Positions 49,283-64,000 of a stretch of 64,000 nt of DNA are shown one piece after another. The translations under genes were made by a program, and so were the position numbers. Source of the stretch: Pseudomonadota bacterium (GTDB taxonomy: Bacteria > Pseudomonadota > Gammaproteobacteria > Burkholderiales > Thiobacillaceae); the NCBI GenBank assembly GCA_030653935.1, contig JAURYL010000018.1:79268-143267 (forward strand). Direction: 5' to 3'. Under the pieces are notes generated by a model. The model had not been told where the DNA came from. It saw nothing but the letters and a program-made list of their open reading frames with translations, and did not search any database. The number at the start of each line of letters is the position of its first letter. Positions within the stretch are counted from its first letter, which is position 1.

Positions 49283-49287
49283 GTCCC

Positions 49288-49641: not shown

Positions 49642-49660
49642 GGCGAGCCTCCCGGTCGGG

Positions 49661-50011
49661 TCAGAAATTCAGGATCCGGTCGGACCAGAGGGTCCAGTCG
49701 GTGAGTTCTTCCAGCGTGCCTTTGTGCACGCCCTCGGCCAGCATGTCCGGGGTCATGCCGCGCGCCTCCATGCAGGTGCCGCAAGTGGCCACCTGGCCGT
49801 GGCGCAATACCGGCTTCAACATGCGTTCGACATTGTAGTAACCCTGCGGGGTGATCTGGCCGGACTTGGCGCACATCACCGAATCGCCCATCAGGAAGAC
49901 GCGGACCTCCACGCCCTCCTTCCTCGCCAGTGAATCCGCCAGGCGCAGGCCGTTGTAGCTGCGTTCGGAACCGTAAGGGGCGTCATTCAAGATGATCACA
50001 ATGCGGTACAT
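49661..50011 (-). CDS. DsrE-family protein, YchN-like (tandem paralog)
   Basis: IILNDAPYGSERSYNGLRLA...FLMGDSV...CGTCMEARG...WTLWSDRILNF. Confidence 0.85.
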   Translation of the reverse strand: MYRIVIILNDAPYGSERSYNGLRLADSLARKEGVEVRVFLMGDSVMCAKSGQITPQGYYNVERMLKPVLRHGQVATCGTCMEARGMTPDMLAEGVHKGTLEELTDWTLWSDRILNF

Positions 50012-50137: not shown

Positions 50138-50206
50138 TACCAATCAATCAGCTGGGTTGCCATGTATCCGGCCTTCATTCGGCCCATTTCCGGGATAATC
50201 CGGCCC

Positions 50207-50872
50207 ATGAGCCCCAAGAAAAAACTGTTCGAGCAATTCGCCCGTGTCGCCAAGTCGCTGGCCAGCCCGAATCGCCTGGAACTGCTGGAGACGATGGCCC
50301 AGGGCGAGAAAAGCGTGGATGCCCTGGCGCAGGCCACCGGCATGTCGGTCGCCAACACCTCGCATCACCTCCAGATCCTGCGCGATTCCGGCCTGGCCGA
50401 ATCCCGCAAGGAAGGCTTGCAGGTGATTTACCGCCTTTCGGATGACCAGATTCCGACCTTGTTGGGCTGCATCAGCCGTATCGCGGAGAAACATCTGGCC
50501 GAGGTGGAGCGCATCGTGCGCGAACACTTCGATCCCCGCGATTCGCTGACCCCGGTGGGGCGCGATGAATTGCTGGCCCGGGTCAAACTGGGTGAAACGA
50601 TGGTCATCGACGTGCGACCCGCCGTGGAGTATCAGGCCGGCCACATCCCCGGCGCGGTCAACATCCCGGTGGATGAACTGCCCCTGCACCTGGATTCTTT
50701 TCCGCACGGGCAGGAAATCGTCGCCTATTGCCGTGGCCCTTACTGCATGTTGGCCTTTGATGCCGTGGCGAAGCTGCGCGAAGCCGGATTTCAGGCACGT
50801 CGTCTCGAAGACGGCTTTCCCGAATGGAAGGCTGAAAGCCGGCCCGTCGAGAGCGGATCGCAGCATTCGTAG
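50207..50872 (+). CDS. ArsR/SmtB-family transcriptional regulator fused to a C-terminal rhodanese domain
   Basis: The wHTH is LASPNRLELLETMAQGEKSVDALAQATGMSVANTSHHLQILRDSGL. The rhodanese part is VIDVRP..EY.AGHIPGAVNIP...YCRGPYC. Confidence 0.85.
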   Translation: MSPKKKLFEQFARVAKSLASPNRLELLETMAQGEKSVDALAQATGMSVANTSHHLQILRDSGLAESRKEGLQVIYRLSDDQIPTLLGCISRIAEKHLAEVERIVREHFDPRDSLTPVGRDELLARVKLGETMVIDVRPAVEYQAGHIPGAVNIPVDELPLHLDSFPHGQEIVAYCRGPYCMLAFDAVAKLREAGFQARRLEDGFPEWKAESRPVESGSQHS

Positions 50873-50896: not shown

Positions 50897-50969
50897 GTAG
50901 GTTGGGCAAAGCGCAGCGTGCCCAACATGGCGATGGGTTGTTGGGCACGCTGCGCTTTGCCCAACCTAC
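50897..50969. repeat. palindromic REP (GTAGGTTGGGCAAAGCGCAGCGTGCCCAAC family), copy 2
   Basis: gtaggttgggcaaagcgcagcgtgcccaaca...gttgggcacgctgcgctttgcccaacctac. Confidence 0.75.
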
Positions 50970-51114: not shown

Positions 51115-51139
51115 TCAAGTATTCTCTTGATTAGTTGAT
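51112..51139. promoter_or_regulatory. operator-like motif TATTCAA-N8-TTGATTAGTTGAT (second copy)
   Basis: See 50110-50137. This copy ends 11 nt before the ATG at 51150. Confidence 0.45.
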
Positions 51140-51149
51140 TTGGGGCGAT

Positions 51150-51941
51150 ATGGACGTATTCGCAATCCTGGCCGGGCTGGCTACCGGCATGGTGTTGGGC
51201 CTCTTCGGCAGCGGCGGTTCCATCATCGCGCTGCCGGCGCTCATGTATCTGCTGCACGTCGAACCGAAATCGGCCATCGCCATGAGCCTGGGCGTGGTGG
51301 CGGTGACCGCCACCGTGTCCGGCTTGCATAACTGGCGCAAGGGCCTGGTTGATGTGCGGGTTGCTCTGGTATTTGGTCTGTTCGGCGTGGCGGGCACCTT
51401 CGCCGGCGCGCGCCTGGGGCTGCTGACGCCGGTGGTGATCCAGTTGGGCCTGTTCGCCCTGGTGATGTACGCCGCCGCCTGGCGCATGTTGAAGCCGGTC
51501 AAGATAGTGGCTCCGGCGGCGGGCGGGGTGGTCAGCGCCGGAGGGGGTACGGCGGCCCTGGGCGACGGTTTCATCCCTCCCCACCTGGGCCACATCGCCC
51601 TGCACGGCATCGGCGTCGGTGTACTGACTGGCCTGGTCGGCGTCGGCGGCGGCTTTCTGATCGTGCCGGCGCTGGTGCTGCTCTCCGGCATTCCGATGAA
51701 GACAGCGGTGGGCACCTCGTTGGTCATCGTCGCCGCCAAGTCCTACGCCGGCTTTATCGGCTACATGGGCGGCGTGCCGATTGACTGGATGGTGATGGCC
51801 AGCTTCACCGTGGTCACGGTGTTGGGCAGTTTCCTCGGCTCGCATTTCGCCAACCGCATTTCCCAGGCCATGCTGAAGAAGGCATTCGCCTGGTTCCTGG
51901 TGGTGGTAGCCACCTACATCATGTTCAAGAGCGTTCTCTAG
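51150..51941 (+). CDS. TauE/SafE (DUF81) family sulfite/anion exporter, second copy in window
   Basis: [35 protein letters not shown]... and the internal repeat [15 protein letters not shown]. Confidence 0.8.
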
Positions 51942-51951
51942 GAGAAATGCC

Positions 51952-52368
51952 ATGAATCGACTCGTCCGTATTCTTACTCTCGCGCTGCTGGCCGTGCCGG
52001 CCTTCGCGGGGCCTCCCGGCAACACGCTGATCGAAGGCCAGAAAGTGCTCACCCTGGTGGTGCGCGAACCGCCCGCCCTGCGCTGCAACAACAACATGCA
52101 GATCGCGGCGGAGTTGAACAATCTCTACAAGCTCCCCATCGTCGTCCTGCCGGCCAGCCTGGCGCCCTGGTCCAAGGCGCCCGCCGTGTATTACGGCGAG
52201 CAGTTGATTGCCGAGGACACCGGCGATTTCAACGGCATGGTGGGCCTCGCCCAGATGGTCGATGTCATCGAGATCGAGGGCGCGCCCAAGCAAGAACGCG
52301 GCGGACGCCTGACCGAAGTGAAGAAAGAGCACGAGGCGCTCAAGGCCGCCATCAAGGGAAGCAACTGA
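51952..52368 (+). CDS. exported hypothetical protein
   Basis: Signal peptide MNRLVRILTLALLAVPAFA. No recognisable motif. Tightly packed between tauE and the next ORF. Confidence 0.5.
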   Translation: MNRLVRILTLALLAVPAFAGPPGNTLIEGQKVLTLVVREPPALRCNNNMQIAAELNNLYKLPIVVLPASLAPWSKAPAVYYGEQLIAEDTGDFNGMVGLAQMVDVIEIEGAPKQERGGRLTEVKKEHEALKAAIKGSN

Positions 52369-52369
52369 G

Positions 52370-52705
52370 ATGCGCCGCCTGCTCTGCGTGGCCCTGCTGT
52401 TCGCACCGCCACCTCTGGCCGCCGCCTGGGAGGGCTGGATCGTCGGTGAACCGTGCGCGGCGCGCTTGCAGGTGGCCGATTGCCCGTTGCGCCACATAGA
52501 CCGCCCCGTCCTGCTTCTGGAAGACGGCCGCAAGCTGGCCTTTCTCCACGGCGAGGGGAAAAGCATTGCGCTCGACGCGCTGGACAAGGCCTATGGCAAG
52601 AAGGTGCGCCTGATTGGCGAGATCCGCAACGGCGTGCTGCATCCGGTCCGGCTGGAGACGCTGGAAGTGACGGGCGAGCGCAAATTCTTCAAGGGTTGCC
52701 TGTGA
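52370..52705 (+). CDS. exported hypothetical protein with Cys pair and C-terminal Cys
   Basis: Signal-like N-terminus, CAARLQVADC, and the C-terminus ends ...FFKGCL. The stop overlaps the tlpA-like GTG start. Confidence 0.5.
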   Translation: MRRLLCVALLFAPPPLAAAWEGWIVGEPCAARLQVADCPLRHIDRPVLLLEDGRKLAFLHGEGKSIALDALDKAYGKKVRLIGEIRNGVLHPVRLETLEVTGERKFFKGCL

Positions 52706-53262
52706 ACCGAGGCACGGTGGCCGCATTCGTGGCCTGCCTTGCCCTTCTGACGGGCAGCGCCGCAGCCGAATCGGCGTTCGCCGATCTTGCCCGCGCGGCC
52801 GGCATGGAGGCCTACGCCGTGCCGCTCAAGGCGCCGAATTTCGAACTTCGCGTCCTGGCCGGCGAGAGAGAGACCCAAACCCGGACCAAACGCGACTACC
52901 GGGGCCGGGTGGTGCTGCTCAACTTCTGGGCGAGCTGGTGCCCGCCCTGCCGCGAGGAGTTCCCTTCCCTGGAGCGGCTGCAACAGGCTCTGGGTGGACG
53001 TGACTTCACCGTGCTGGCCATCGCCGTGGCGGACAGTGAGACGGCGGTGGGCCATTTTCTGGAGGGGCGCCGACCGGCCTTCGATGTGCTACTGGACGAC
53101 GACCGCAAGACCGCCGGCGACTACCGCAGCCCCGGCGTTCCGGTGACTTATCTGCTCGACCGCCAGGGCCGCATGCTGGCCGGCAAGACCGGACCACGGC
53201 AGTGGGACGGACCGGAAATGCAAGCGCTGATCCGGGCAGCGATCCGGGCCGGCCAGTGGTGA
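52702..53262 (+). CDS. TlpA/ResA-like periplasmic thiol:disulfide oxidoreductase
   Basis: GTG 52702. Signal/anchor, then VVLLNFWASWCPPCREEFP (CxxC thioredoxin motif). Confidence 0.85.
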   Translation: MNRGTVAAFVACLALLTGSAAAESAFADLARAAGMEAYAVPLKAPNFELRVLAGERETQTRTKRDYRGRVVLLNFWASWCPPCREEFPSLERLQQALGGRDFTVLAIAVADSETAVGHFLEGRRPAFDVLLDDDRKTAGDYRSPGVPVTYLLDRQGRMLAGKTGPRQWDGPEMQALIRAAIRAGQW

Positions 53263-53280
53263 ACCAAGGAGGAGAGTGAC

Positions 53281-53354
53281 GTAGGTTGGGCAAAGCGAAG
53301 CGTGCCCAACGGAACCGCCGCGATGTTGGGCACGCTTCGCTTTGCCCAACCTAC
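53281..53354. repeat. palindromic REP (GTAGGTTGGGCAAAGCGCAGCGTGCCCAAC family), copy 3
   Basis: gtaggttgggcaaagcgaagcgtgcccaac...gttgggcacgcttcgctttgcccaacctac. Confidence 0.75.
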
Positions 53355-53423
53355 GGCTACGGTTGCTGGAAGACTCTACGGAATCAATAGGTTGCAGGGC
53401 GTTTTTAAAGAGGAGAGACGAAG

Positions 53424-54290
53424 ATGCGACAGTTCTTGTTATTGATCGTGGGGTTCTGGGCCACCCAGGCCATGGCGGGGGCCTCGTTCCTGGTCTCCAC
53501 CGGCGAATTGGCCACTGAGTTGGCGCAAGGCCGGGTGCGGCTGGTGGACGCCGAGAACGCGGAAAACTACGCCCGCGCCCATCTTGCCGGCGCGCTGAAC
53601 CTGCCTTACCTGGACCTGGAGGATGCCGAGGAGAACGCCAAGACCGGCCTGCCCATCTTTCCCCGCCTGGCCGCGTCGAAGTTCGAGGCATTGGGCATCG
53701 CCCGCGACACCCCGGTGGTGGTGTACGACTCCGGCAACGGGCGCGGCGCCTCGGCGGTGCGCTACATCCTGCGCTTCCTGGGCCACCCGGACGCGCGCAT
53801 CCTGGACGGCGGTTTCCGCAAATGGCTGAAGGAAGGCCGGCCGGTCACCCAGGCGGTTCCCCAGCCCGCGAAGGCCACCTATCTTGCCCAACCGAACCTG
53901 GACTGGGCCTTGAAAACCGAGGCCTTGAAAACCGACGCCCTCAAGGGCCGCAACGCCTTGATCCTGGATGCCCGCTCCATCGCCGAATACGCCGGCAAGG
54001 ATGCCGGCGGCGCCCGCCAGGCCGGCCATATTCCCGGCGCGAAAAGCTTGCCCTGGACCCTGCTCGCGGGCGAGCTCGACACCTTCAAGTCGCCGGAGGA
54101 AATGCGCCGTGTGCTGCTGGAGGCGGGCGTCACCCCGGACCGGGAGATCGTCACCTACTGCAATCCCGGCATCGGACGTTCCACCTTCCTGTCGATGGCG
54201 CTGGAGAGCCTCGGCTACGACAAGGTGAAGGTCTACCCCGGCTCCTGGATCGAATGGGCTGCCGACCCGATTCGGCCGATCGAGAGGTAA
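53424..54290 (+). CDS. periplasmic tandem-rhodanese sulfurtransferase (SseA/thiosulfate sulfurtransferase-like)
   Basis: Signal peptide MRQFLLLIVGFWATQAMA. Two rhodanese repeats are present, the second with GHIPGA and active-site loop YCNPGIGRS. Confidence 0.85.
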   Translation: MRQFLLLIVGFWATQAMAGASFLVSTGELATELAQGRVRLVDAENAENYARAHLAGALNLPYLDLEDAEENAKTGLPIFPRLAASKFEALGIARDTPVVVYDSGNGRGASAVRYILRFLGHPDARILDGGFRKWLKEGRPVTQAVPQPAKATYLAQPNLDWALKTEALKTDALKGRNALILDARSIAEYAGKDAGGARQAGHIPGAKSLPWTLLAGELDTFKSPEEMRRVLLEAGVTPDREIVTYCNPGIGRSTFLSMALESLGYDKVKVYPGSWIEWAADPIRPIER

Positions 54291-54293
54291 GCC

Positions 54294-57056
54294 ATGGAAC
54301 GCCGCGAATTCCTCAAAAGCACGGCCTTCTGCGGTCTGGCGCTTGCCTTCGGCGGGCCGCTCGCGCCCCTTTCCGCCCAAGCCGCCGGAACCCCATCCGC
54401 CCGCGCCTGGGAAGACCGCTATCGGCGCGAATTCCTCGATACGCGCGGCGACGCCATGGGCTTCGCCTTCCACTGCTCCAACTGCCAGGGCAACTGCGCC
54501 TGGAAGGTGTACGCCAAGGACGGCGTGGTCACCCGCGAAGAACAGTCCGCGTCTTATCCCGCCATCGCTGCGAATATTCCCGACGCCAACCCGCGCGGCT
54601 GCAACAAGGGCATCGTCCATTCCAAGCAGATGGTTCAGGCCGACCGCCTGCTCTACCCCATGAAGCGCGCGGGCAAGCGCGGCGAGGGCAAGTGGCAGCG
54701 GGTGACCTGGGACACCGCCATCGACGACATCGCCGCCCGCGTGGTCAACAGTTTGGACAAGCACGGCCTGGCCTCGCTGATGGTCTATTGCGGCACCGGC
54801 ATCCTTTCTCAGGGCCGTCGCGCCGGGCCGCTGCGCCTGGGTTCGCTCTTGGGCGCGCAACGTCTGTACCCAGCCAGCGCGGTCGGCGACATGTTCACCG
54901 GCGCATCGCTGGCTTATGGCCTGGCCACCGTGGGGCATACCCTGGACGCCTGGTTCGAGGCCAAAACGATCATCCTCTGGGGCATCAACCCGGCGGTGAC
55001 CCGCATCCCCGACGCCCATTACCTGATGGAGGCGCGCTACAACGGCGCCAAAATTTACTGCATCACCCCGGAGTACAACGCCAGCGTCAAGCTCGCCACC
55101 GACTGGCTGCCGGTGAAGGCGGGTACGGACAGCCACCTCGCCATGTCGCTGCTGCACGTGCTGTTCCGCGACAACCTGATCGACCGCGAGTTCGTGCGCG
55201 AGCAAACCGATCTGACCTTCCTGGTGCGAACTGACACCGGCGACCTGCTGCGCCACAAAGACCTCCGCGACAAGGGCAAGGACGACGTGTTCTATTGCTG
55301 GGATGAGGGTACCAGCGCGACCACCGGCTCGGCCCAGGCCATGCCCGGCACCCAGGGGCATTTCAAGAAATCGTTGCGTCTGGGCAAGCTGAAGCCCGCG
55401 CTGGAAGGCACTTGGCAGGTCAAGGGCAAGGACGGCGGCATGATCCCGGTGACCACCGTGTTCGAGCAGGCGCGGCGCGAGGCGCTGAAATTCCCGCCGG
55501 CCGAGACCCACAAGCTCACCGGCGTGCATCCCGATCTGGTGGAACGCATGGCCAAGGATTTGGCCAAGTCTGACAAGGCCATCATCAACATCGGTTTTTC
55601 GCTGCACAAATACGTCTCCGGCACCATGACCTGCTGGGCGGCGGCGCTGGCCTGCGCGCTCACCGGACATGCCGGCGAGCGCGGCGGGCTGGATACCGAG
55701 AACAACTGGAGCCTGGGCGGCATCGGCCCGCTGTCCAGCCCGAAGCCGGCGCGTTTCGCCTCCGGCTTTTTCAGCGAATGGATGAACGGCGGCATGGAAA
55801 AAACCATGCGCCAACACTATTCCGACGCCCATCTGAAAGAGACGGTCGGCCTTGATCACAAGGAGATCGGCGAACTGGCAGGACGCTACGGCGAGACCAG
55901 CGGCGCCTGGTTCGGCAAGCCGCGCGCGCTGCTGCTGTTCGCCGACAACCTGCTCAGGCGCAACAAGTCGGATGCGCATTACCGCCAGGCCTTCGTCGAG
56001 AGCCTGGACCTGTTCGTCGACGTCAACCACCGCATGGACAGCACCGCCCTGTGGGCCGACTACGTGCTGCCGGCCAAGAGCCAGTACGAAAGCTGGGATT
56101 TGCGAGGCGAGCTGGGCTACCACCGCTTCTGCAACATCACCGTACCGCCGCCGGGGTTGAAGCCCATCGGCGAAACCAAGTCGGAATGGGAAATCTGCCT
56201 GCTGTTCGCCCAGGCGATTTCCAGGGAAGCGAAGAAACGCGGCCTGACCGCCATCCCCGACCCCGACTTCCTGGAGACCAAGAACGACAAGGCCGCCCCG
56301 GTGATGCGCGACCTCGTCCACCTGCCGGACGACTTCACCAATCAGGGCACGCTGATGAATGACGAGGATGTGGTGCGCTGGCTGATGAAGAACGTCCCCG
56401 CCATCGCCCCGTGGACGCCGGAAGACGCGATGAAACACGGCTACGTCACGCTCAACCGCGAGGCCGGCTACAACTCGCCGCTCTACGCCAATCGGCCGTT
56501 CCACTCGTTCGAGAACAACGTCTACCTGCGCCAGCCCTACAAGACCCTGTCGGGTCGGCAGCAGTTCTATGTCGATCATCCGGTGTTCAAAAAACTGGGT
56601 TGCGCCACGCCCACGGCCATGCAGCCGGTGCGGCCGAAGAGCTTCCCGCTCGCGTTCTGGACCCCGCACACCCGCCACGGCATCCACTCGCAATGGCGCG
56701 CCAACACCCAACTGCTCAGGTTGCAGCGTGGCGAGCCCTACATCTGCCTCAACCCCGACACGGCCCGGCAACGCGGCATCCTGGAGGGCGATCCGGTGCG
56801 GGTATTCAACGACGTCGGCGAGTTCCAGGCCCGCGCCAAGCTCTCGTCCACGGCCCCGCCCGGCGCCGTGGTGCTTGACCACGCCTGGGAACCGTTCCAG
56901 TTCCGTGGCCGCCAGGGCTTGAACAGCGTGGTGGCGGGCCTGCTCTCGCCGCTGGAGCTGGTCGATGGCTGGGGCCACCTCAAGTTCAACCCCAACTGGG
57001 ACGGCAACATGATCGCCTTCGAGTCGGCGGTGGAAGTCGAGAAGGTGGCGGCATGA
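54294..57056 (+). CDS. type II DMSO-reductase-family molybdopterin oxidoreductase, catalytic alpha subunit (Tat-exported), substrate unknown
   Basis: The Tat motif is MERREFLKSTAF...AQA. The FS0 ligand pattern HCSNCQGNCAW (Hx3Cx3C) is as in NarG/EbdA/SerA/DdhA. 920 aa. Confidence 0.85.
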   Translation: MERREFLKSTAFCGLALAFGGPLAPLSAQAAGTPSARAWEDRYRREFLDTRGDAMGFAFHCSNCQGNCAWKVYAKDGVVTREEQSASYPAIAANIPDANPRGCNKGIVHSKQMVQADRLLYPMKRAGKRGEGKWQRVTWDTAIDDIAARVVNSLDKHGLASLMVYCGTGILSQGRRAGPLRLGSLLGAQRLYPASAVGDMFTGASLAYGLATVGHTLDAWFEAKTIILWGINPAVTRIPDAHYLMEARYNGAKIYCITPEYNASVKLATDWLPVKAGTDSHLAMSLLHVLFRDNLIDREFVREQTDLTFLVRTDTGDLLRHKDLRDKGKDDVFYCWDEGTSATTGSAQAMPGTQGHFKKSLRLGKLKPALEGTWQVKGKDGGMIPVTTVFEQARREALKFPPAETHKLTGVHPDLVERMAKDLAKSDKAIINIGFSLHKYVSGTMTCWAAALACALTGHAGERGGLDTENNWSLGGIGPLSSPKPARFASGFFSEWMNGGMEKTMRQHYSDAHLKETVGLDHKEIGELAGRYGETSGAWFGKPRALLLFADNLLRRNKSDAHYRQAFVESLDLFVDVNHRMDSTALWADYVLPAKSQYESWDLRGELGYHRFCNITVPPPGLKPIGETKSEWEICLLFAQAISREAKKRGLTAIPDPDFLETKNDKAAPVMRDLVHLPDDFTNQGTLMNDEDVVRWLMKNVPAIAPWTPEDAMKHGYVTLNREAGYNSPLYANRPFHSFENNVYLRQPYKTLSGRQQFYVDHPVFKKLGCATPTAMQPVRPKSFPLAFWTPHTRHGIHSQWRANTQLLRLQRGEPYICLNPDTARQRGILEGDPVRVFNDVGEFQARAKLSSTAPPGAVVLDHAWEPFQFRGRQGLNSVVAGLLSPLELVDGWGHLKFNPNWDGNMIAFESAVEVEKVAA

Positions 57057-57065
57057 GACAAAGTC

Positions 57066-57139
57066 GTAGGTTGGGCAAAGCGCAGCGTGCCCAACAACCC
57101 GCCGCAATGTTGGGCACGCTGCGCTTTGCCCAACCTACG
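57066..57139. repeat. palindromic REP (GTAGGTTGGGCAAAGCGCAGCGTGCCCAAC family), copy 4, between the alpha and beta genes
   Basis: gtaggttgggcaaagcgcagcgtgcccaaca...gttgggcacgctgcgctttgcccaacctac. Confidence 0.75.
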
Positions 57140-57177
57140 CCGCAACCTACGTTTCACCTTGCCAATCAGGGAACAAC

Positions 57178-58176
57178 ATGAGCACACGCCAGCTCGGCAT
57201 GGTCATCGACCTCAACAAATGCATCGGCTGCCAGACCTGCACCCTGGCCTGCAAATCGCAATGGACGGATCGCGGCGGACGCGAGTTCATGTACTGGAAC
57301 CACGTCGAAACCAAGCCCGGCCAGGGCTACCCACGTCGGTGGGAAGAAGCTGGCGGCGGCTGGGAGGGTGAAACTTTGAAACCCGGTCGCCTGCCGCGCC
57401 TGGCCGAGGACTACGGCGTCCCCGCCGACTTCAATTTCGAATCGACCCTGTTCCAGCCCAGCGACCAGCCCCTGCGGCCCCTGGAGGCGATGCGATGGGG
57501 GCCGAACTGGGAGGAGGACCAGGGCGCCGGGGAATTCCCCAACGGCTATTTCTTCTACCTGCCTCGCCTGTGCAACCACTGCTCCAACCCCGCCTGCCTC
57601 GCCGCCTGCCCGCGCCAGGCCATCTACAAGCGCGAGGAAGACGGCATCGTGCTGATCGACCAGGAGCGCTGCCGGGGCTACCGCTACTGCGTCGCCGCCT
57701 GCCCGTACAAGAAGATCTACTTCAACCCGCTGGCCGGCAAATCGGAGAAGTGCATCTTCTGCTACCCGCGTGTCGAGAAAGGCATCCCCCAGGCCTGCGC
57801 CTACCAGTGCGTCGGCCGGGCGCGGCATGTGGCTTATTTCGACGACCCCGAAGGCGCCCTCCACCAGCTAGTCAATGTCTGGAAGGTAGCCCTGCCGCTA
57901 CATCCGGAATACGGCACCCAGCCCAACGTCTACTACGTGCCGCCGTTGTCGCCGCCCACTTTCGCTGCCGACGGCAAACCCACCGGCGCGCCGCGCATCC
58001 CGGACGACTACCTGCGCCAGTTGTTCGGACCGGCGGTGGACGCGGCGCTGGATGTCCTGCAAGGCGAGATCGCGAAGAAGGAAAAGGGCGGCGAGTCGGC
58101 CCTGATGGACCTGCTCATCGCCTACCGCCACGGCGACATGTTCCGGCTGAGTCGGCCGGAAGGAGGCCAGTCATGA
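57178..58176 (+). CDS. type II DMSO-reductase-family iron-sulfur beta subunit (NarH/EbdB/DdhB-like)
   Basis: DLNKCIGCQTCTLACK, LPRLCNHCSNPACLAACP, CRGYRYCVAACPY and KCIFCYPR form the four ferredoxin-type Cys groups. Confidence 0.9.
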   Translation: MSTRQLGMVIDLNKCIGCQTCTLACKSQWTDRGGREFMYWNHVETKPGQGYPRRWEEAGGGWEGETLKPGRLPRLAEDYGVPADFNFESTLFQPSDQPLRPLEAMRWGPNWEEDQGAGEFPNGYFFYLPRLCNHCSNPACLAACPRQAIYKREEDGIVLIDQERCRGYRYCVAACPYKKIYFNPLAGKSEKCIFCYPRVEKGIPQACAYQCVGRARHVAYFDDPEGALHQLVNVWKVALPLHPEYGTQPNVYYVPPLSPPTFAADGKPTGAPRIPDDYLRQLFGPAVDAALDVLQGEIAKKEKGGESALMDLLIAYRHGDMFRLSRPEGGQS

Positions 58177-59177
58177 GCCGGGCGCGGGGGTGGTTGCTGT
58201 CAAAAGATGCCGGCGGGGACGCCGGCGCTACATGGGGCCGCGCGTTGGTGTGGCTCCTGCTCCTGTTCGCCGCCCCGGCATGGGCCGCATCCGAATGGAC
58301 GATCCCGGTCGGCGAGAGTGCCGGCCCGCCGCCCCTCGACCCTCTCGATGCCGCCTGGACAGGGGCACCGGCCGCAGCCGTGCCGCTGTATCCCCAGGCC
58401 ACGGCGCCGGGCGGGTTATCGCGGGCATACCCTAAAGGGCACAAGAGCCCACTCCTACAGGAAGCGCGCGTGTTGCGCGGCGGCGGCAAGCTGGCGCTGC
58501 GCCTGGCCTGGCCGGACGCCACGGCGGACCTGGCCGACCCACGCGCCACCGACCGCTTCGCCGACGCGGCGGCGGTCCAGTTTGCCCCGGTAGACGCCAC
58601 GCTACCCTATGTCGGCATGGGCGAACCCGGCCGGCCGGTACGGGTCTGGCTCTGGCGTGCCGGCCGGCCGGCGGAAAGCCTGACGGCGCAAGGCTTCGGC
58701 AGCCTGGCTCGGCAACCGAATGAAGCCGTCGAGGCCCAGGCCCGGCGCACGGCGACGGGCTGGGCGGTAGTACTGCGCGGCAAGGAATCCGCCGACCGGC
58801 CCGCCGCCGTCGCCTTCGCCACCTGGGACGGCGCCGAGGAGGGTCGCGCCGGCCGCAAGCGGCTGTCCGCCTGGCGCGCGCTGGCAGGTATGGAACCGGA
58901 CGGCAAATTGCTGGAAGAGGCGCGCGTCGGCGGCGACCCCGCACGCGGCGCCAGCCTGTACGCCGAGCACGGCTGCGCGGCCTGCCATACCGCTGGCGTG
59001 GGCCTGGGTCCCAACCTCACCCACGCCGGCGGCATCCATTGGCCCGGCTACCTGCGCCGTGCCCTGCTCGAACCCACCGCCTTCGTGGTGCCGGGCTACG
59101 CGGCGATCATGCCCGCCCCGCCGCTACGGCCGGAGGAGACGGACGATCTGGTGGCGTATTTGCTGACTTTGCATTGA
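58173..59177 (+). CDS. gamma subunit: EB_dh-like haem b domain fused to a C-terminal monohaem cytochrome c
   Basis: ATG 58173 overlaps the beta stop as ATGA. Signal peptide, then LPYVGMGEPGRPVRVWLW and GRKRLSAW, which resemble the Met/Lys haem-b ligand regions of EbdC/DdhC-type subunits. The C-terminal CAACH haem c site lies downstream. Confidence 0.7.
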   Translation: MSRARGWLLSKDAGGDAGATWGRALVWLLLLFAAPAWAASEWTIPVGESAGPPPLDPLDAAWTGAPAAAVPLYPQATAPGGLSRAYPKGHKSPLLQEARVLRGGGKLALRLAWPDATADLADPRATDRFADAAAVQFAPVDATLPYVGMGEPGRPVRVWLWRAGRPAESLTAQGFGSLARQPNEAVEAQARRTATGWAVVLRGKESADRPAAVAFATWDGAEEGRAGRKRLSAWRALAGMEPDGKLLEEARVGGDPARGASLYAEHGCAACHTAGVGLGPNLTHAGGIHWPGYLRRALLEPTAFVVPGYAAIMPAPPLRPEETDDLVAYLLTLH

Positions 59178-59195
59178 GTAGAGAAGGAGTGGTCA

Positions 59196-59516
59196 ATGAG
59201 CATCGCAGTCCGCGTCATTTCCCAGAAGCCACCCGGTGGCCGCTGCACCCTGTACGCCGGTTACGCCGACGTGCTCGAACGCCACCTGGAGGCGCGCGCC
59301 GAACTGGTCTTCACCACGACGCGCGATGCCCACGGCGAGGGTTTCCCCAGCCTCTGGCTGAACGGCGCGGCCGTCTTGCCCGAGGATGGGGTGATCCTGA
59401 TGCCGGCCGATATTCTGGCCGGCCTGAAATCGCACGGCTTGACGGAGGAGGCCATGCCGGGCCTGATCGAGGCGCTTGAGGCACCGCTGGATCGCATGCT
59501 GGAAGTGGAAGGTTGA
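59196..59516 (+). CDS. hypothetical protein (106 aa) downstream of the gamma subunit
   Basis: A strong GAAGGAG RBS precedes it. No motif I recognise, and it is too short for a NarJ/DdhD-type chaperone. Confidence 0.5.
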   Translation: MSIAVRVISQKPPGGRCTLYAGYADVLERHLEARAELVFTTTRDAHGEGFPSLWLNGAAVLPEDGVILMPADILAGLKSHGLTEEAMPGLIEALEAPLDRMLEVEG

Positions 59517-59530
59517 AAAGGAGACGAATC

Positions 59531-59947
59531 ATGGAAACGAAAAAAACGGTGTCGGTGATGTGCTTCCACGACGAACTGTGCCAGGTGTTCAACGCCATGA
59601 TGACGGCGCTGTCCCTGCTCAGGGAGGGCGCGAAAGTCACGGTCTACTTCGGTTCGCGCGGGGTCAACGCGCTGCACAAGGACAAGGTGGGCAAGCTGCA
59701 ATGCCTGCCGGACCAGCCGGAAGTGGGCGAGATGGTCATGAAGCGGATGGACGAACTGGATGTGCCCCTGGTGGAAGACCTGTTTTTCATGTTCATCCAC
59801 GAGGGCGGCCAAGTGCTGGCCTGTCCGCTCAACGTGCCGCTGTTCGGCATGAGCGAGCGCGATCTGATCGACGGCGCCAAGCTCGCCGAGCCGGCCCGCT
59901 ATTACAAGGAAGTCGTGATGCGGGCGGACATGAACTTGACTTTTTGA
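59531..59947 (+). CDS. DsrE/DsrF/DrsH-like (DrsE_2-type) protein
   Basis: AAGGAG RBS. KKTVSVMCFHDELCQVFNAMMTALSLLREGAKVTVYFGSRGVNAL...ACPLN resembles the DrsE_2 family pattern. Confidence 0.6.
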   Translation: METKKTVSVMCFHDELCQVFNAMMTALSLLREGAKVTVYFGSRGVNALHKDKVGKLQCLPDQPEVGEMVMKRMDELDVPLVEDLFFMFIHEGGQVLACPLNVPLFGMSERDLIDGAKLAEPARYYKEVVMRADMNLTF

Positions 59948-60038
59948 TTTGAATACCCGCCCGCACAAACGGCGGGATGCCGCACGGCCCGAATCTCGGG
60001 CCTCACAAGTTGTAAACCTACCCTTTAGGAGTTGGACC

Positions 60039-60542
60039 ATGTATTTGAATACGCTGCGCACTACGACTTTCATTGCCACCCTGTTTGCCCTGGTTTTTTC
60101 TTTAAGTGTTTCCGCCGTCGAACTGAATGATCGACATGCCCTTAGCGGCGTGAAAAGCGGCAAGGCCTTGTTCGATATCGCTACCGGCAATCCGAATGCG
60201 ATGGTGATTACGCTCGACATCGTTGGGGAAACCATCGATGGCTTGAAGCGCAACGGGGTCGAACCGGAAATCGTCATCGCCTTCCGTGGACCGGCGGTGC
60301 GCTTTCTGAGTGGCGACAGCGCCCGTATCCCGCCGGAACACGCCGCCACCGCGATGGAACTGGCAACCCGCATCGAACAACTTGCTGCGCGCGGAGTGCG
60401 TATCGAAGCCTGTGGAATCACGATGCGCATGATGAAAATGGACAACGCGACGCTGGTAAAAGGGGTGCAGCCGGTGGCCAACACCTTCAATTCTCTGATC
60501 GGTTACCAGGCCAAGGGCTACGCCTTGATTCCGATTTTCTGA
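60039..60542 (+). CDS. exported DsrE-like (COG1416-type) protein
   Basis: AGGAG RBS and a signal peptide ending SVSA. KALFDIATGNP...IVIAFRGPAVRFL...IEACGITM...GYALIPIF. Confidence 0.6.
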   Translation: MYLNTLRTTTFIATLFALVFSLSVSAVELNDRHALSGVKSGKALFDIATGNPNAMVITLDIVGETIDGLKRNGVEPEIVIAFRGPAVRFLSGDSARIPPEHAATAMELATRIEQLAARGVRIEACGITMRMMKMDNATLVKGVQPVANTFNSLIGYQAKGYALIPIF

Positions 60543-60646: not shown

Positions 60647-61816
60647 ATGGCAAACGAAAAAACGGTGTTGATCCTCGGTGGCGGTGTCGGCGGCGTGGTG
60701 GCTGCCACCCGTTTGCGCCAACGACTGCCGCGCGAACACCGTGTGGTGCTGGTGGAGCGGGCGGCGGCATTCGTCTTCCAGTCGGCTTTCCTGCGGCTGA
60801 TGACGGGGCAACGCACACGGGCGGCGATCTCGCGGCCGTTGGCGAACCTGGAGAAGCGCGGCATCGAGGTCATCCGGGGCGAGGTCGAGGCCATCGATCC
60901 GGATCGGCGCAGCGCACGCGTCAACGGCCAGGAACTGGCGGGCGACTATCTGGTGCTTGCCCTGGGTGCCGAACTGGCCTCGGACGCCGTGCCCGGCCTC
61001 ACCGAGGCGGGCATCAATCTCTATACCCCGGAAGGTGCTACGCAGCTGAACGAGGCGCGCCAGGCGATCCGCAGCGGGCACGTTGTTGTACGCCTGGCCA
61101 TGCTGGTGTGCGCCACGCCGTTCAAATGTCCGGCCGCGCCCTACGAGGCGGCCATGCTGCTCGACGCCGATCTGCGTCGGCGCGGATTGCGCGCTGCCGT
61201 CGCCATCGACCTGTACACGCCGGAGCCCGGCCCGATGGGCGCGGCGGGACCGGAGATTTCCAGGCAAGTGCGGCAAATGGTCGAGGCCAAGGGCATCGGC
61301 TACCACCCCGAACACGCCGTAACCGGGGTGGACGCTTTGATAAAGCAATTGCGCTTCGCCAATGGCGCAACGGCTGACTTCGATTTGCTGGTTTATGTGC
61401 CGCCGCACCGCGCCCCGCTCTGCGCGCGCGAGGCGGGCCTGTGCGGCGCGAATGGCTGGATCGAGGTGGACCGCGCCACCCTGGCGACCCGTTTCCCCGG
61501 CATTTACGCCATCGGCGACGCCGTCGGCATTTCGCTGACCACCGGCAAGCCCCTGCCCAAGGCCGCCGTGTTCGCCCAGGCTCAGGCCGAGACGGTGGCG
61601 CGCAATATCGCCGATCTGATCGAGGGCCGCCCAGCGGCAAATCACTTCGAAGGCCATGGTGCCTGTTTTCTGGAAATCGGCGACGGCCGCGCCGGCTTCG
61701 GCAGCGGCAATTTCTACGCCGAACCCGCGCCCGCCATCACCATGAAACCGCCTGGGCGTCTGATGCACTGGGCCAAGGCGGCGTATGAGAAATACTGGCT
61801 GTACAAGTGGTTCTGA
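60647..61816 (+). CDS. FAD-dependent pyridine nucleotide-disulfide oxidoreductase, sulfide:quinone oxidoreductase (SQR)-like
   Basis: The dinucleotide fold is VLILGGGVGGVVAA. FKCPAAPYEAAMLLD and IYAIGDA are typical of the SQR/FCSD superfamily. Confidence 0.75.
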   Translation: MANEKTVLILGGGVGGVVAATRLRQRLPREHRVVLVERAAAFVFQSAFLRLMTGQRTRAAISRPLANLEKRGIEVIRGEVEAIDPDRRSARVNGQELAGDYLVLALGAELASDAVPGLTEAGINLYTPEGATQLNEARQAIRSGHVVVRLAMLVCATPFKCPAAPYEAAMLLDADLRRRGLRAAVAIDLYTPEPGPMGAAGPEISRQVRQMVEAKGIGYHPEHAVTGVDALIKQLRFANGATADFDLLVYVPPHRAPLCAREAGLCGANGWIEVDRATLATRFPGIYAIGDAVGISLTTGKPLPKAAVFAQAQAETVARNIADLIEGRPAANHFEGHGACFLEIGDGRAGFGSGNFYAEPAPAITMKPPGRLMHWAKAAYEKYWLYKWF

Positions 61817-61857
61817 GTCACCGATTCATTCCTATCCCTTGGTTACGGAGCAACCTC

Positions 61858-63039
61858 ATGACGACCCAACCCGCCGCCCTCGCTACCCGCTGCGTCCACG
61901 CCGGTGAACTCGACGATCCGCACGGCTCGCCGCATACGCCGATCTATACGACGACAACCTTCAAGTTTCCTTCCACCGCCGCGGTTCTGGATGTGGTGGA
62001 AGGGCGCAAGGCGGGGGCGCTCTATACCCGCTACGGAATGAACCCGACCATCCAGGCCCTGGAGGAAAAACTCGCCGCTCTGGAAGACGCGGAAGCCGCC
62101 TGGGCGTTCTGCTCCGGCATGGCGGCGGAGTCGGCCCTGTTCCTCACCTACGGACGAACCGGCATCGTCTGTCTGGGGGATGCCTACGGCGGCACCCTGG
62201 AACTGTTGTCCACACAATTGCCGACCCTGGGCATCCCCGGGTATTTCCTGCTGGGCGACGAGCTGGACGCGCTGCCTTCGCTGCTCAAGCGCGGCGCCGG
62301 ACTGGTGTTCTTCGAAACGCCGACCAACCCGACCCTGGAACAGTTCGACATCGCCGCGATCAGCGAAATCGCCCATGCCCATGGCGCTTTCGTGGCGGTG
62401 GACAACACTTTCGCCTCGCCGGTGAACCAGAACCCCCTGGCCCTGGGCGCGGATTTCGTGGTGCACAGCGCCACCAAGTACCTGGGAGGCCATTCCGATC
62501 TGACCGCCGGGGCGTTGATGGGCGCGAAAAATGCCCTGGTGCCGGTGTGGAGCTGGCGCAAGAACCTGGGCCAGACCATCGCTCCGGAGATCGCCGCGCA
62601 GCTCGCCCGCAGCCTGCGCAGCCTGCCGGTACGGGTGGAACGGCAGAACGCCACGGCCATGAAACTGGCCCAGGCGATGCAATCCCACCCCGGCGTGGCG
62701 CGGGTGCTTTATCCCGGCCTGCCGGATTTTCCCGGCTTTGATCTGGCGAAACGGCAGATGCGGGGCTTTGGTGGCATGTTGACCATCGAGATCAAAGGAG
62801 GAGGCGAGTGTGGGAAAAACAGTGCCACCCGAGTCGCGGACAAGCTGAAATTGTTTGCCCTGGCCCCTTCTCTGGGCGGCGTCGAAAGTTTGGTGACCCA
62901 GCCCTGCACCACCACCCACCACGGCCTGACCCCGGAAGAACGCGCCCGGCGCGGCATTTCCGACGCCATGCTGCGCCTGTCTGTGGGACTGGAGGACGCG
63001 GACGATCTGATCGCCGACCTGGAGCGGGCGCTCGCCTGA
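61858..63039 (+). CDS. Cys/Met-metabolism PLP-dependent enzyme (cystathionine gamma-synthase/lyase family)
   Basis: TRCVHAGE...PIYTTTTF...YTRYGMNPT...VVHSATKYLGGHSD, which carries the PLP lysine. Confidence 0.85.
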   Translation: MTTQPAALATRCVHAGELDDPHGSPHTPIYTTTTFKFPSTAAVLDVVEGRKAGALYTRYGMNPTIQALEEKLAALEDAEAAWAFCSGMAAESALFLTYGRTGIVCLGDAYGGTLELLSTQLPTLGIPGYFLLGDELDALPSLLKRGAGLVFFETPTNPTLEQFDIAAISEIAHAHGAFVAVDNTFASPVNQNPLALGADFVVHSATKYLGGHSDLTAGALMGAKNALVPVWSWRKNLGQTIAPEIAAQLARSLRSLPVRVERQNATAMKLAQAMQSHPGVARVLYPGLPDFPGFDLAKRQMRGFGGMLTIEIKGGGECGKNSATRVADKLKLFALAPSLGGVESLVTQPCTTTHHGLTPEERARRGISDAMLRLSVGLEDADDLIADLERALA

Positions 63040-63045
63040 ATTTTC

Positions 63046-63759
63046 ATGTGCGAGCTGTTCGGCCTGTCCGCCCATCGCCCGCTCGCCGGGTGGGAACTGC
63101 CTCTGACCGCGTTTCGCGACCGGGGCGGCGGCGTGGCCGACAATCCCGACGGCTGGGGCATGGCCTGGCGGGTGGGTAGCGGCTTCCAACTGGAGAAGGA
63201 AGCCGCGCCCGCCTGCCGCAGTGCGCGGTTCGCTGAACTGCTCAGGACTTGGCGCGGCGATCTCGCCATCGCCCATGTGCGCAAGGCCAAATACCCACCC
63301 ATCAACACCCCGGCCAACACCCACCCCTTCCTGCAGGATTGCTGCGCACGCCGCTGGGCCTTCGCGCATAACGGCCTGGTGCCCGACGTCGTCGCCCTGG
63401 AGTCGGCCAGCGACGGGCGGGTCTGCCGGCCCGAGGGGGAGACGGATTCAGAATTCGCCTTTTGCCATCTGCTCGCCCAGGTCACGCCGCGCTTCGGCAC
63501 CCCCGACTGGCTGAACGGGCTGTCCAGAAGCAGCGAGGAAATCGCCCGACTCGGCCAGTTCAATTTTCTCTTGTCCGAAGGTGAGCACCTGATCGCCTAC
63601 GGACATGATCGTCTGCATTACCTGGAGTCCGCTGTGGGCGTCGTCCTGATCGCCACCGAGCCATTGAGCCATCACGCCGGCTGGACGCCTTTCGTGCCGG
63701 GCGAGCTGCGCATCTACCGCGATGGACGACGCATCCAACTTTCCCGCATCCCGACCTGA
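63046..63759 (+). CDS. class II (Ntn) glutamine amidotransferase, YafJ/EgtC-like
   Basis: MCELFGLSA provides the N-terminal Cys nucleophile. NPDGWG and HVRKA...NTHPF are also present. Confidence 0.75.
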
Positions 63760-63766
63760 CCTGACC

Positions 63767-64000
63767 ATGAATTCGCCCATCTACCTCGACTACAACGCCA
63801 CCACGCCCATCGACCCGCGCGTGACCGAGGCCATGCTGCCGTTTCTGCGCGAACAGTTCGGCAACCCGTCCTCGGATCATGTGTACGGCCGTCGGGCGAA
63901 GGCGGCGGTGGAAAACGCGCGCGGCGAGGTGGCTGCGCTGATCGGTGCGCGGCCGGTCGAGATCGTCTTCACCGGCTGCGCCACAGAAGCCAATAATCTG
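63767..64000 (+). CDS. cysteine desulfurase (NifS/IscS family), 5' part only
   Basis: My translation is [61 protein letters not shown]...[13 protein letters not shown]. Open-ended at the window edge. Confidence 0.8.

Follow-up and report, generated by a model that had tools for sequence, protein, structure and literature searches.

A periplasmic clade of type II DMSO-reductase-family enzymes whose partner genes point to an unrecognised sulfur-oxidation module from Proteobacteria to Aquificota

The window analyzed here is a stretch of 64,000 nucleotides of contig JAURYL010000018.1 (assembly GCA_030653935.1) from a bacterium of the Thiobacillaceae. From ~50.1 kb to the window end, ~17 genes follow each other on the + strand with short gaps between them. 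They encode an exported molybdoenzyme of the type II dimethyl sulfoxide (DMSO) reductase family with alpha, beta, and gamma subunits, a tandem rhodanese immediately upstream of alpha, and two small exported proteins designated sm138 and sm111. The latter belongs to a family in which the penultimate residue is either cysteine or selenocysteine (Sec). The genes point to an unrecognised sulfur-oxidation module that extends from Proteobacteria to Aquificota. An earlier sequence-only reading covered the segment from 53424 to 60542; the most informative partners of the enzyme, namely, sm111, sm138, a TlpA-like protein, a TauE-family permease, and an ArsR-rhodanese regulator, are encoded upstream of that segment. 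No description of the system was found in a search of the full-text literature. A paper on arsenite and Thioalkalivibrio concerns SoeABC and not this system, the ergothioneine synthase MES, which resembles acetylene hydratase, is cytoplasmic and a different enzyme, and the MolyAB complex of Dissulfuribacter and a survey of complex iron-sulfur molybdoenzymes from Mono Lake are unrelated.

The molybdoenzyme and its clade

The genes for the enzyme and the small exported proteins ahead of it are arranged as follows:

51952–52368, + strand: sm138, an exported single-Cys protein with a PPxxRC motif and no Pfam or NCBIfam match
52370–52705, + strand: sm111, an exported protein of 111 aa with the tail FFKGCL and no Pfam or NCBIfam match
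52717–53262, + strand: TlpA/ResA-like periplasmic thiol:disulfide oxidoreductase with a WCPPC motif (Pfam AhpC-TSA and Redoxin)
53424–54290, + strand: exported tandem rhodanese with two Pfam Rhodanese domains and an N-terminal signal peptide
54294–57056, + strand: alpha, an exported molybdoenzyme of the type II DMSO reductase family carrying a twin-arginine translocation (Tat) signal and binding a bis(molybdopterin guanine dinucleotide) (bis-MGD) cofactor (PF00384 and PF01568)
57178–58176, + strand: beta, with four Fe-S Cys groups (TIGR03478)
58173–59177, + strand: gamma, with a signal peptide, an EB_dh haem b domain, and a C-terminal class I cytochrome c domain (CAACH; Pfam EB_dh and Cytochrom_C)

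Judged by its sequence, alpha is a genuine enzyme of the type II DMSO reductase family. It contains the bis-MGD-binding domains PF00384 (E value of 6e-34) and PF01568 (E value of 2e-17), and the Tat signal and the Hx3Cx3C pattern of the cluster FS0, both noted in the sequence-only reading, are present. The former is found in the N terminus MERREFLK, and the latter is found in the segments FHCSNCQGNC...NPRGCNKG, which provide H60, C64, C68, and C103. These four residues are invariant in an alignment of 12 diverse homologues. Asp199, likewise invariant among the aligned homologues, aligns without gaps to the molybdenum (Mo) ligand Asp170 of PcrA and is therefore the predicted Mo ligand of alpha. 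PcrA is also the best match to alpha in the PDB, with an E value of 1e-131 and ~40% identity by eye over the aligned stretch, but its aromatic gate of F164, Y165, and W167 is replaced by P193, A194, and A196. Alpha scores 881.3 bits with the type II alpha model TIGR03479, below the cutoff of 984.75, and the equivalog models for EbdA and NarG remain far under their cutoffs. Overall, alpha is at most ~40% identical to any characterized enzyme; the nearest is ClrA, with 36% identity, compared to ~32% for the haloarchaeal pNarG.

A filter-only database search with alpha against 1.84 billion cluster representatives shows three representatives with scores of 795 to 1003 bits, followed by one with 605 bits and 39% identity. 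This representative stands for the ClrA cluster and is 83% identical to ClrA from Ideonella. Outside the clade of alpha and its sister branch, no representative exceeds 605 bits, and this ceiling would bound the identity of SerA and DdhA to alpha at about 39%.

For comparison, 80 related loci were collected, with one genome per GTDB species, and the proteins of the window were mapped onto them by tblastn. The majority of the loci originate from metagenome-assembled genomes (MAGs). Tree position and identity to the alpha subunit of the window define four tiers:

Tier 1, 69–95% identity: Thiobacillus, Sulfuricella, Sulfuritalea, Thiohalomonas, Thioalkalivibrio denitrificans, and Rhodospirillales
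Tier 2, 55–59% identity: betaproteobacterial, Nitrospirota, and other MAGs
Tier 3, 44–50% identity: Nitrospinota, Thermodesulfovibrionia, Deferribacteres, and Polyangiales
Tier 4, 42–45% identity: Aquificota, Campylobacterota, and one member of the Myxococcota

The neighbor-joining (NJ) tree was calculated from 113 sequences and 890 columns with 50 bootstraps; SerA and DdhA are not placed in it by name. All 78 alpha subunits of the fetched loci, together with close representatives, form one monophyletic clade with an NJ bootstrap value of 100. The next branch consists of a single representative (P0122), followed by the ClrA group. The operon of P0122 has the ordinary order alpha-beta-delta-gamma, along with a LysR regulator, and lacks the rhodanese and the carrier. 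Eleven residues are at least 95% conserved inside the clade and rare outside: R190, M200, F201, Y440, N614, P618, L622, Y731, E740, D903, and G904. M200 and F201 flank the Mo ligand, and the clade-specific Arg190 is located near the Mo-ligating Asp. With the features of the family and a clade of its own, alpha belongs to no characterized clade, in agreement with the sequence-only reading, which had regarded the enzyme as uncharacterized and had proposed a phylogeny of alpha as a check. Membership in the Clr, Pcr, or Ebd clade was rejected on the basis of the separate NJ clade, the model scores below the cutoffs, and the loss of the PcrA gate residues. The automatic JGI name for alpha subunits of this clade, "dimethylsulfide dehydrogenase subunit alpha," has no support.

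The beta subunit scores 530.7 bits with the curated type II beta model TIGR03478, above the cutoff of 480.7, and the four ferredoxin Cys groups reported earlier can be read in its sequence. Gamma most likely starts at the ATG at position 58173, which overlaps the stop codon of beta and is preceded by AAGGAGG. Its EB_dh domain is recognized by PF09459 (E value of 4e-14) and, at 128 bits, falls under the cutoff of 170 of TIGR03477; Met148 and Lys228 align to the haem b ligands Met108 and Lys201 of EbdC. As the sequence-only reading had described, the haem b domain and the CAACH cytochrome c domain are contained in one open reading frame (ORF). The two halves follow each other in one frame, and the gamma ORF contains a single CxxCH, in ~48 independent loci from hosts belonging to the Beta-, Gamma-, and Alphaproteobacteria, Nitrospirota, Aquificota, and Campylobacterota. 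The fusion is thus old and not a sequencing artefact, and the possibility raised earlier that a frameshift had joined two genes was rejected. The further claim that this fusion is unlike the characterized members holds insofar as it is absent from all of them, but it is not a feature of the whole clade: in a Sulfuritalea/Rhodocyclaceae subgroup, gamma contains haem b only, and a group of Nitrospinota, Thermodesulfovibrionia, and Deferribacteres has different electron partners in place of the fused gamma subunit.

In tier 3, substitutes for the gamma-cytochrome c protein are encoded at L055:7518-11256, L056:13791-17504, and L089:12783-13778. They comprise either an EB_dh domain fused to a five-haem cytochrome, together with a Rieske-like Tat protein and a protein of 476 aa, or a cytochrome of the NapC/NirT type. 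This set of partners suggests a coupling to the quinone pool in those lineages. Dihaem proteins are also among the partners seen in the group. In the window, alpha, beta, and gamma are predicted to make up an electron wire of the usual type II design, with a c-type haem in the periplasm as its terminus.

Conserved partners and the Cys/Sec-tail carrier

The linkage of the partner genes was counted in the 48 loci whose sequence extends 4 kb or more upstream and 4.5 kb or more downstream of alpha (full-flank loci). The tandem rhodanese is found in all 48, 0 to 3 kb upstream of alpha, and its linkage spans Proteobacteria, Nitrospirota/Nitrospinota, Aquificota, and Campylobacterota. The sm111 carrier and the beta subunit are equally constant (48/48 each), followed by the EB_dh gamma subunit (43/48) and the fused cytochrome c (35/48). 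The fusion of an ArsR-type regulator with a rhodanese domain occurs in 37 of the 41 full-flank loci of tiers 1 to 3. Both sm138 (32/36) and the TlpA-like protein (34/36) are typical of tiers 1 and 2, and the latter is absent from tiers 3 and 4. A transporter slot is occupied by a YeeE-type Sulf_transp protein in 17 of the 25 loci of tiers 2 to 4 and by a TauE-family permease, as in the window, in 14 of the 23 tier 1 loci. The sequence-only reading had expected the link to rhodanese and DsrE genes to be conserved in other genomes; this proved correct for the rhodanese, but DsrE is found in only 19 of the 48 loci. The DrsE_2 protein is patchy (7/48), the exported DsrE protein at 60039–60542 has detectable homologues in just two other loci, and the 106-aa protein orf106 is limited to tier 1 (12 of 23 loci). 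The hosts are mostly named sulfur oxidisers, i.e., Thiobacillus, Sulfuricella, Sulfuritalea, Thiohalomonas, Thioalkalivibrio, Sulfurihydrogenibium, and Persephonella, and cultured strains with the module include Thiohalomonas denitrificans, Thioalkalivibrio denitrificans ALJD, and Sulfurihydrogenibium yellowstonense.

The rhodanese, correctly placed by the sequence-only reading as a periplasmic tandem protein immediately upstream of alpha, shows two domains, of which the N-terminal one is inactive, with Asp replacing the catalytic Cys. The catalytic Cys is found in the C-terminal domain, in a loop of six residues within the sequence YCNPGIGRST, and nearly all loci examined share the pattern YC[NQH]xG[LIA]GR. 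This loop matches neither of the motifs CRKGVTA and CG[ST]GVTA. The protein scores 105 bits with the MST model (cutoff of 250) and shows only weak matches, below the cutoff, to the ExtH selenite/tellurite model.

The C terminus of sm111 reads ...ERKFFKGCL. In Campylobacterota, the ORF that immediately follows gamma ends in ...KSFFKGCL, its equivalent in Aquificota ends in ...PKPKPGFFKGCL, and the tier 3 equivalent, located just upstream of the rhodanese, ends in ...GKMSKACL or similar. With a hidden Markov model built from all tiers, exactly one copy was found in 70 of 82 sources; all 12 sources that lack one are loci truncated near alpha. The family shares a signal peptide, the invariant residues C29 and C38, a beta-rich body, and the tail, with C110 being invariant as well. 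The body drops to ~20% identity while the tail stays fixed, and in tier 4, Pro-rich linkers precede the tail.

In 18 loci, comprising most of tier 2, Thioalkalivibrio denitrificans, and one tier 3 locus, the gene reads FFKG-TGA-Leu-stop. Each of these genes shows a GC-rich hairpin of 5 to 8 bp resembling a Sec insertion sequence (SECIS) element, beginning 13 to 15 nt after the UGA, and the stems vary in sequence with their pairing kept (covariation). Genes of the Cys form show no hairpin at a conserved position. This is the signature of a Sec/Cys pair at a reactive residue, and Sec insertion is predicted for the TGA forms. In one tier 2 locus (L088:14293-16218), selB lies directly downstream of the alpha-beta-gamma operon, and both the carrier and the YeeE gene contain a TGA codon there.

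No member of the family, in any tier, matches a Pfam or NCBIfam model, the curated selenoprotein models included, and public annotations list the proteins as "hypothetical." Among the matches listed by a profile search for distant homologues, only tier 1 proteins appear. An AlphaFold 2 (AF2) model from 30 tier 1 sequences, with a mean confidence (pLDDT) of 76, predicts a small beta barrel, leaves the tail poorly ordered, and shows only weak matches to oligonucleotide/oligosaccharide-binding (OB)-like folds (best E value of 0.17). A SoxY-like fold is not supported by this model, which lacks a match to SoxY, and the tail is FFKGCL rather than GGCGG. We propose that sm111 is a sulfur carrier and represents a previously undescribed family of small (seleno)proteins.

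Cys/Sec positions also occur in other proteins along a possible relay. The YeeE-type transporter of tiers 2 to 4, encoded between the rhodanese and alpha, contains the motif GF[C/U]PGTC. In 15 of 29 loci, an in-frame TGA stands at the first position of this motif, indicating a selenoprotein form. The TGA forms (L088:6858-7967; L034-L036, L038, L039, L050, L054-L059, L064, and L065) are split into two ORFs by gene callers. The transporter matches the NCBIfam model for TsuA-type thiosulfate transporters weakly, with 56 bits against a cutoff of 400. Selenoproteins of the YeeE/YedE type have already been catalogued (PMC13188914).

The single conserved Cys of sm138 (Cys45, in PPxxRC) is an in-frame TGA in L038, and the active-site Cys of DsrE is an in-frame TGA in L033 and L034. 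In L057, an in-frame TGA adjoins a Cys of the SQR-like flavoprotein. Selenoprotein subtypes of DsrE and of type III SQR are already known, and the TGA codons of L033, L034, and L057 correspond to them. The sm138 family is homologous to that of orf106 (hhalign probability of 95%, E value of 2.8e-8), with a shared single-Cys motif, PPG.RC. Since sm138 is exported and orf106 has no signal peptide, they appear to be periplasmic and cytoplasmic copies of one single-Cys family flanking the enzyme genes. A sequence search of the PDB with sm138 gave nothing significant, and a single-sequence structure model reached a pLDDT of 43, too low for use.

The remaining features of the region are as follows:

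48385–50011, − strand: divergent unit with a metallo-beta-lactamase-fold protein and two DsrE proteins (Lactamase_B; DsrE twice)
50162–50872, + strand: ArsR-family helix-turn-helix protein fused to a rhodanese domain (Pfam HTH_5 and Rhodanese)
51135–51941, + strand: TauE/SafE-family anion permease (PF01925 in the public gene call)
57065–57139, strand not applicable: element resembling repetitive extragenic palindromic (REP) sequences in the alpha-beta gap, with two 32-nt arms, 100% complementary, 11 nt apart
59196–59516, + strand: orf106, a 106-aa cytoplasmic single-Cys protein (PPGGRC) without a family match
59531–59947, + strand: DsrE2-like protein (DrsE_2, PF13686)
60039–60542, + strand: DsrE-family protein (PF02635) with an N-terminal signal peptide
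60647–61816, + strand: SQR-like flavoprotein resembling type III SQR (Pyr_redox_2)
61858–63039, + strand: Cys/Met-metabolism pyridoxal phosphate (PLP) enzyme (PF01053, E value of 1.7e-117)
63046–63759, + strand: class II glutamine amidotransferase-like protein (GATase_4, PF13230)
from ~63767, + strand: Aminotran_5, cysteine desulfurase-like, start only, running off the window end

The divergent upstream genes encode the metallo-beta-lactamase-fold protein, possibly a persulfide dioxygenase, the two DsrE proteins, a transporter of the major facilitator superfamily, and a rhodanese. The ArsR-rhodanese protein matches the BigR model weakly (51 bits; cutoff of 155) and is likely a persulfide- or sulfite-responsive regulator. 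The TauE permease fills the transporter slot held by the YeeE-type protein in other tiers. The TlpA-like protein scores 96.6 bits with the NCBIfam TlpA model, under its cutoff of 230.

Downstream, the order given in the sequence-only reading was found again, with a 106-aa ORF followed by two DsrE-like genes, one of them exported, and then by SQR-like, Cys/Met PLP, Ntn-type amidotransferase, and cysteine desulfurase genes. The SQR-like flavoprotein scores 207 bits with NF049943 (cutoff of 525) and is a recurrent but not universal neighbor. The best model for the Cys/Met PLP enzyme is methionine gamma-lyase, with a score under the cutoff. This enzyme, Aminotran_5, and a methyltransferase occur in 14 of the 48 full-flank loci each, and GATase_4 recurs in tiers 1 and 2. 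In these two tiers, a nonuniversal accessory set (window 60647–64000; L003 and L088) is found near the module, comprising GATase_4 (weakly EgtC-like), Aminotran_5, a small S-adenosylmethionine (SAM) methyltransferase, the Cys_Met PLP enzyme, the SQR-like flavoprotein, and a fatty-acid-hydroxylase protein, which is fused to a rhodanese domain in L003. The set may be a separate pathway processing thiols or chalcogens.

A gene for a chaperone of the NarJ/SerD type (Nitrate_red_del) was not found in the window by a Pfam scan of the downstream genes or by tblastn with three such chaperones. The earlier claim that this chaperone gene is missing therefore stands for the window and for tiers 1 to 3 but not for tier 4, where the loci of Campylobacterota and Aquificota carry it; the chaperone may be encoded elsewhere in the genome of the window. 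In the loci of Aquificota and in the single Myxococcota locus, L080, a second molybdoenzyme set follows directly downstream (L069:15943-21485; L066, L068, L071, L074, L080, and L083). It shows a TtrBCA-like order (Fer4_11, NrfD, and a Mo subunit of 1095 aa), followed by a Nitrate_red_del chaperone. In Thiohalomonas denitrificans (L003:1155-3588), an ArsS-like radical SAM protein (DUF3641), a GT2 glycosyltransferase, and DUF2064 are encoded just upstream of the module. This trio presumably corresponds to genes whose annotation refers to arsenosugar synthesis or to an association with selenium.

The REP-like element of ~75 nt is present in four copies (49210–49282, 50897–50969, 53280–53355, and 57065–57139) with arms of 30 to 32 nt that are 100% complementary and spaced by 11 to 14 nt. 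All copies lie in intergenic gaps, two of them inside the operon (between TlpA and the rhodanese and between alpha and beta), and the element is probably not part of the enzyme system. Elsewhere in the window, a 224-aa ORF on the − strand (44854–45528) without a Pfam match contains a 9-nt-periodic repeat at 44986–45183, which, read on the reverse strand, is a Met/Gly/Lys-rich stretch. The ORF adjoins CusF and DUF411 genes and probably encodes a copper-binding periplasmic protein. An ORF for a group II intron reverse transcriptase/maturase is located at 5780–7372. A 444-aa ORF at 9917–11251 matches only positions 168 to 519 of the 919 positions of the phosphoenolpyruvate (PEP) carboxylase model and may thus be a truncated or interrupted gene. 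The remaining genes of the window are housekeeping genes, e.g., for glycogen phosphorylases and synthase, PMT_2 glycosyltransferases, a methyl-accepting chemotaxis protein, and RelA/SpoT.

Proposed function and alternatives

From the gene context, the sequence-only reading had argued for a sulfur substrate of the enzyme. Much stronger comparative evidence now supports this view, and a sulfur substrate is still what we infer from the gene content. The reading preferred here, tentatively and with somewhat less than even confidence, is a periplasmic, Sox-independent sulfur-oxidation module built around the new type II clade. The rhodanese would cleave thiosulfate, or draw sulfur from polysulfide or persulfide, and would transfer the sulfane sulfur to the Cys/Sec tail of the carrier. 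From the tail, the sulfur would travel along a Cys/Sec relay, via sm138 and then the YeeE pore, or via TauE and DsrE2 in the case of the window, to the cytoplasmic carriers orf106 and DsrE. The released sulfite would be oxidized to sulfate at the Mo centre, and the two electrons would pass from FS0-FS4 to haem b, to the fused haem c, and on to the soluble cytochrome c pool, which would feed an oxidase or denitrification enzymes. TlpA would hold the thiols or selenols of the carriers reduced, and the ArsR-rhodanese protein would turn the genes on when reactive sulfur is present. Sulfur oxidisers without SoxCD use a branched thiosulfate pathway, which the proposed scheme would mirror with different proteins.

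This sulfite-oxidizing scheme uses every conserved part of the module and leaves the enzyme with a small oxyanion as the substrate, as in its nearest relatives. The nearest characterized relatives act on chlorate, selenate, perchlorate, and nitrate/nitrite, and the conversion of sulfite to sulfate is an oxo-transfer of the same type. Arg190, specific to the clade and close to the Mo ligand, is consistent with an anionic substrate. A permease and a regulator of the sulfur type are usually present, and the hosts are mostly sulfur lithotrophs.

Several observations weigh against it. The direction of electron flow is not set by the predicted anatomy of the enzyme, and Ser and Clr, which likewise rely on haem b and soluble cytochromes c, work as reductases. 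In betaproteobacterial sulfur oxidisers of these genera, sulfite is usually already oxidized in the cytoplasm by SoeABC, or by Apr with Sat. SerA and DdhA are missing by name from the tree. No covariation was found between the rhodanese loop and the carrier tail; loops of the form CH.G track tier 4, and tails of the form SK[AS]CL track tier 3. Tier 1, the window included, has TauE instead of YeeE, which bears on the import route. Finally, an invariant FFKG[C/U]L tail on a body of ~20% identity fits docking of the carrier into the Mo enzyme at least as well, and the same holds for the position of the carrier gene directly after gamma in Aquificota and Campylobacterota.

The last two points lead to the strongest competing explanation, a possible though doubtful one, in which the substrate is borne by the protein. 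Here, the Cys/Sec tail loaded by the rhodanese would enter the Mo funnel, and its persulfide would be oxygenated stepwise to a thiosulfonate or sulfite with electrons passing to the fused cytochrome c. The enzyme would then have a function analogous to that of SoxCD toward SoxY, or of DsrAB toward the arm of DsrC. One carrier gene per enzyme locus, the invariance of the tail from Proteobacteria to Aquificota, and the Pro-rich linkers of tier 4, where the carrier gene also directly follows gamma, are in line with such a docking arm, and the swap of Cys and Sec marks the residue as a chemical centre. DsrC likewise has a penultimate Cys on a flexible C-terminal arm, and SoxY has its Cys within a GGCGG motif at the C terminus. 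Funnels for bulky substrates, e.g., steroid side chains and ethylbenzene, can evolve in type II enzymes, and Ddh performs an S-oxygenation. However, we know of no DMSO-reductase-family enzyme that acts on a protein-borne substrate, the core of the module encodes no SoxB-like hydrolase for sulfate release, and the predicted carrier fold is OB-like (a weak match) and not that of SoxY. In addition, a Cys/Sec relay leading into a membrane transporter suggests that sulfane sulfur is imported rather than oxidized outside.

An unlikely alternative takes up the recurrence of Sec and selenium-related genes, namely, a reductase for selenium (or tellurium) oxyanions like SerABC. The rhodanese, the Cys/Sec carrier, and YedE/YeeE would capture and import reduced selenium, to be processed by the downstream PLP enzymes, cysteine desulfurase, and methyltransferase. 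ClrA, the nearest named relative of alpha, groups with SerA (which is not placed in the present tree), and soluble cytochromes c serve as the electron donors of Ser and Clr. The weak rhodanese matches to the ExtH model, selB adjoining the operon in L088, several selenoproteins within the module, the ArsS-like radical SAM, glycosyltransferase, and DUF2064 genes next door in Thiohalomonas, and the methyltransferase, Cys_Met PLP enzyme, and Aminotran_5 recurring nearby are all compatible with this idea. Nevertheless, every match to a selenium-related model is far below its cutoff, a catalytic Sec says nothing about the substrate, and the accessory genes are patchy. The regulator and the neighbors (DsrE, the SQR-like flavoprotein, the metallo-beta-lactamase-fold protein, and TauE) are of the sulfur type, as is the lifestyle of the mainly sulfur-lithotrophic hosts. 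A Ddh-like dehydrogenase for dimethylsulfide (DMS) or other organosulfur compounds, with the neighboring methionine-gamma-lyase-like enzyme and methyltransferase making methylated sulfur compounds, agrees with the automatic JGI names, with the presence of these two genes (the lyase model being below its cutoff), and with the transfer of electrons from Ddh to cytochrome c, but it is very improbable given that nothing outside the clade and its sister exceeds 605 bits and ~39% identity, so that alpha is not close to any Ddh, that the PLP enzyme and the methyltransferase accompany fewer than a third of the full-flank loci each, and that the universal rhodanese, the Cys/Sec carrier, and YeeE are left unexplained.

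Under the preferred sulfite-oxidizing scheme, the module provides candidates for the periplasmic handling and import of sulfane sulfur in sulfur oxidisers without SoxCD, and a candidate for the oxidation of sulfite outside the cell. These candidates are the molybdoenzyme with its link to cytochrome c, the rhodanese, a YeeE that contains Sec, and two hitherto undescribed Cys/Sec proteins. The analysis also adds an uncatalogued family of small predicted selenoproteins, whose genes are now truncated at UGA in public annotations, and corrects the misleading name "dimethylsulfide dehydrogenase" in metagenome surveys of the sulfur cycle. If the substrate were protein-borne, this would be the first known DMSO-reductase-family enzyme with a carrier protein as its substrate, and a Sox- and Dsr-independent periplasmic oxidation of sulfane sulfur would be common to Aquificota, Campylobacterota, Nitrospirota/Nitrospinota, and Proteobacteria.

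Comparison with known systems

The enzyme differs from every characterized type II member in its clade and pocket residues, in the fusion of gamma to cytochrome c, in the obligatory rhodanese, and in the Cys/Sec-tail protein. The chlorate reductase ClrABC from Ideonella dechloratans shows the greatest likeness, with a Tat-exported alpha subunit containing H-x3-C-x3-C and the Asp ligand, a four-cluster beta subunit, and an EB_dh gamma subunit in a soluble periplasmic enzyme. The selenate reductase SerABC and the DMS dehydrogenase DdhABC belong to the same group, and their electrons are exchanged with c-type cytochromes. Beyond the moderate identity of the alpha subunits (36%), the residues flanking the Mo ligand differ from those of ClrA. 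In Ideonella, clrABDC is followed by a separate gene for a small c-type cytochrome, which carries electrons to or from ClrC, whereas the cytochrome c of the clade described here is fused to gamma. The window locus lacks the gene for the delta chaperone, and the clr operons lack the rhodanese and the Cys/Sec-tail protein, both obligatory in this clade. The perchlorate reductase PcrAB (PDB entries 4ydd and 5e7o) provides the best solved structure, with a full-length alignment and the Asp ligand kept, but its gate F164/Y165/W167 is not shared (P193/A194/A196 in alpha), and Pcr has no EB_dh gamma subunit.

In terms of function, SoxYZ together with SoxCD offers a comparable arrangement of a periplasmic carrier with a reactive Cys on a C-terminal arm and a molybdoenzyme with a c-type cytochrome partner in the oxidation of thiosulfate or sulfane sulfur. 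SoxCD is, however, a member of the sulfite-oxidase family and not of the DMSO reductase family. SoxY carries its GGCGG motif on an Ig-like fold, in contrast to FFKG[C/U]L on the predicted small beta barrel of sm111, and the module encodes neither SoxAX nor SoxB. DsrC and DsrAB resemble the system in the penultimate C-terminal Cys on a flexible arm of a sulfur-carrying cosubstrate for a redox enzyme; DsrC differs in being cytoplasmic, with a second Cys ten residues upstream, an unrelated fold, and a sirohaem partner.

A periplasmic rhodanese-type sulfurtransferase that is encoded with, and feeds, a DMSO-reductase-family enzyme is known from Sud and PsrABC of Wolinella and from SrrE/F, the rhodaneses that go with a selenite reductase. 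The Psr and Srr enzymes fall into another subfamily, in which the ligand is a Cys and NrfD anchors the enzyme in the membrane, and they are quinol linked and reductive. The YeeE/YedE (TsuA) thiosulfate transporters are represented in tiers 2 to 4 by the Sulf_transp protein between the rhodanese and alpha, including its Sec forms, although the match to the TsuA model (56 bits against a cutoff of 400) is low, and a permease of the TauE family fills the slot in the window.

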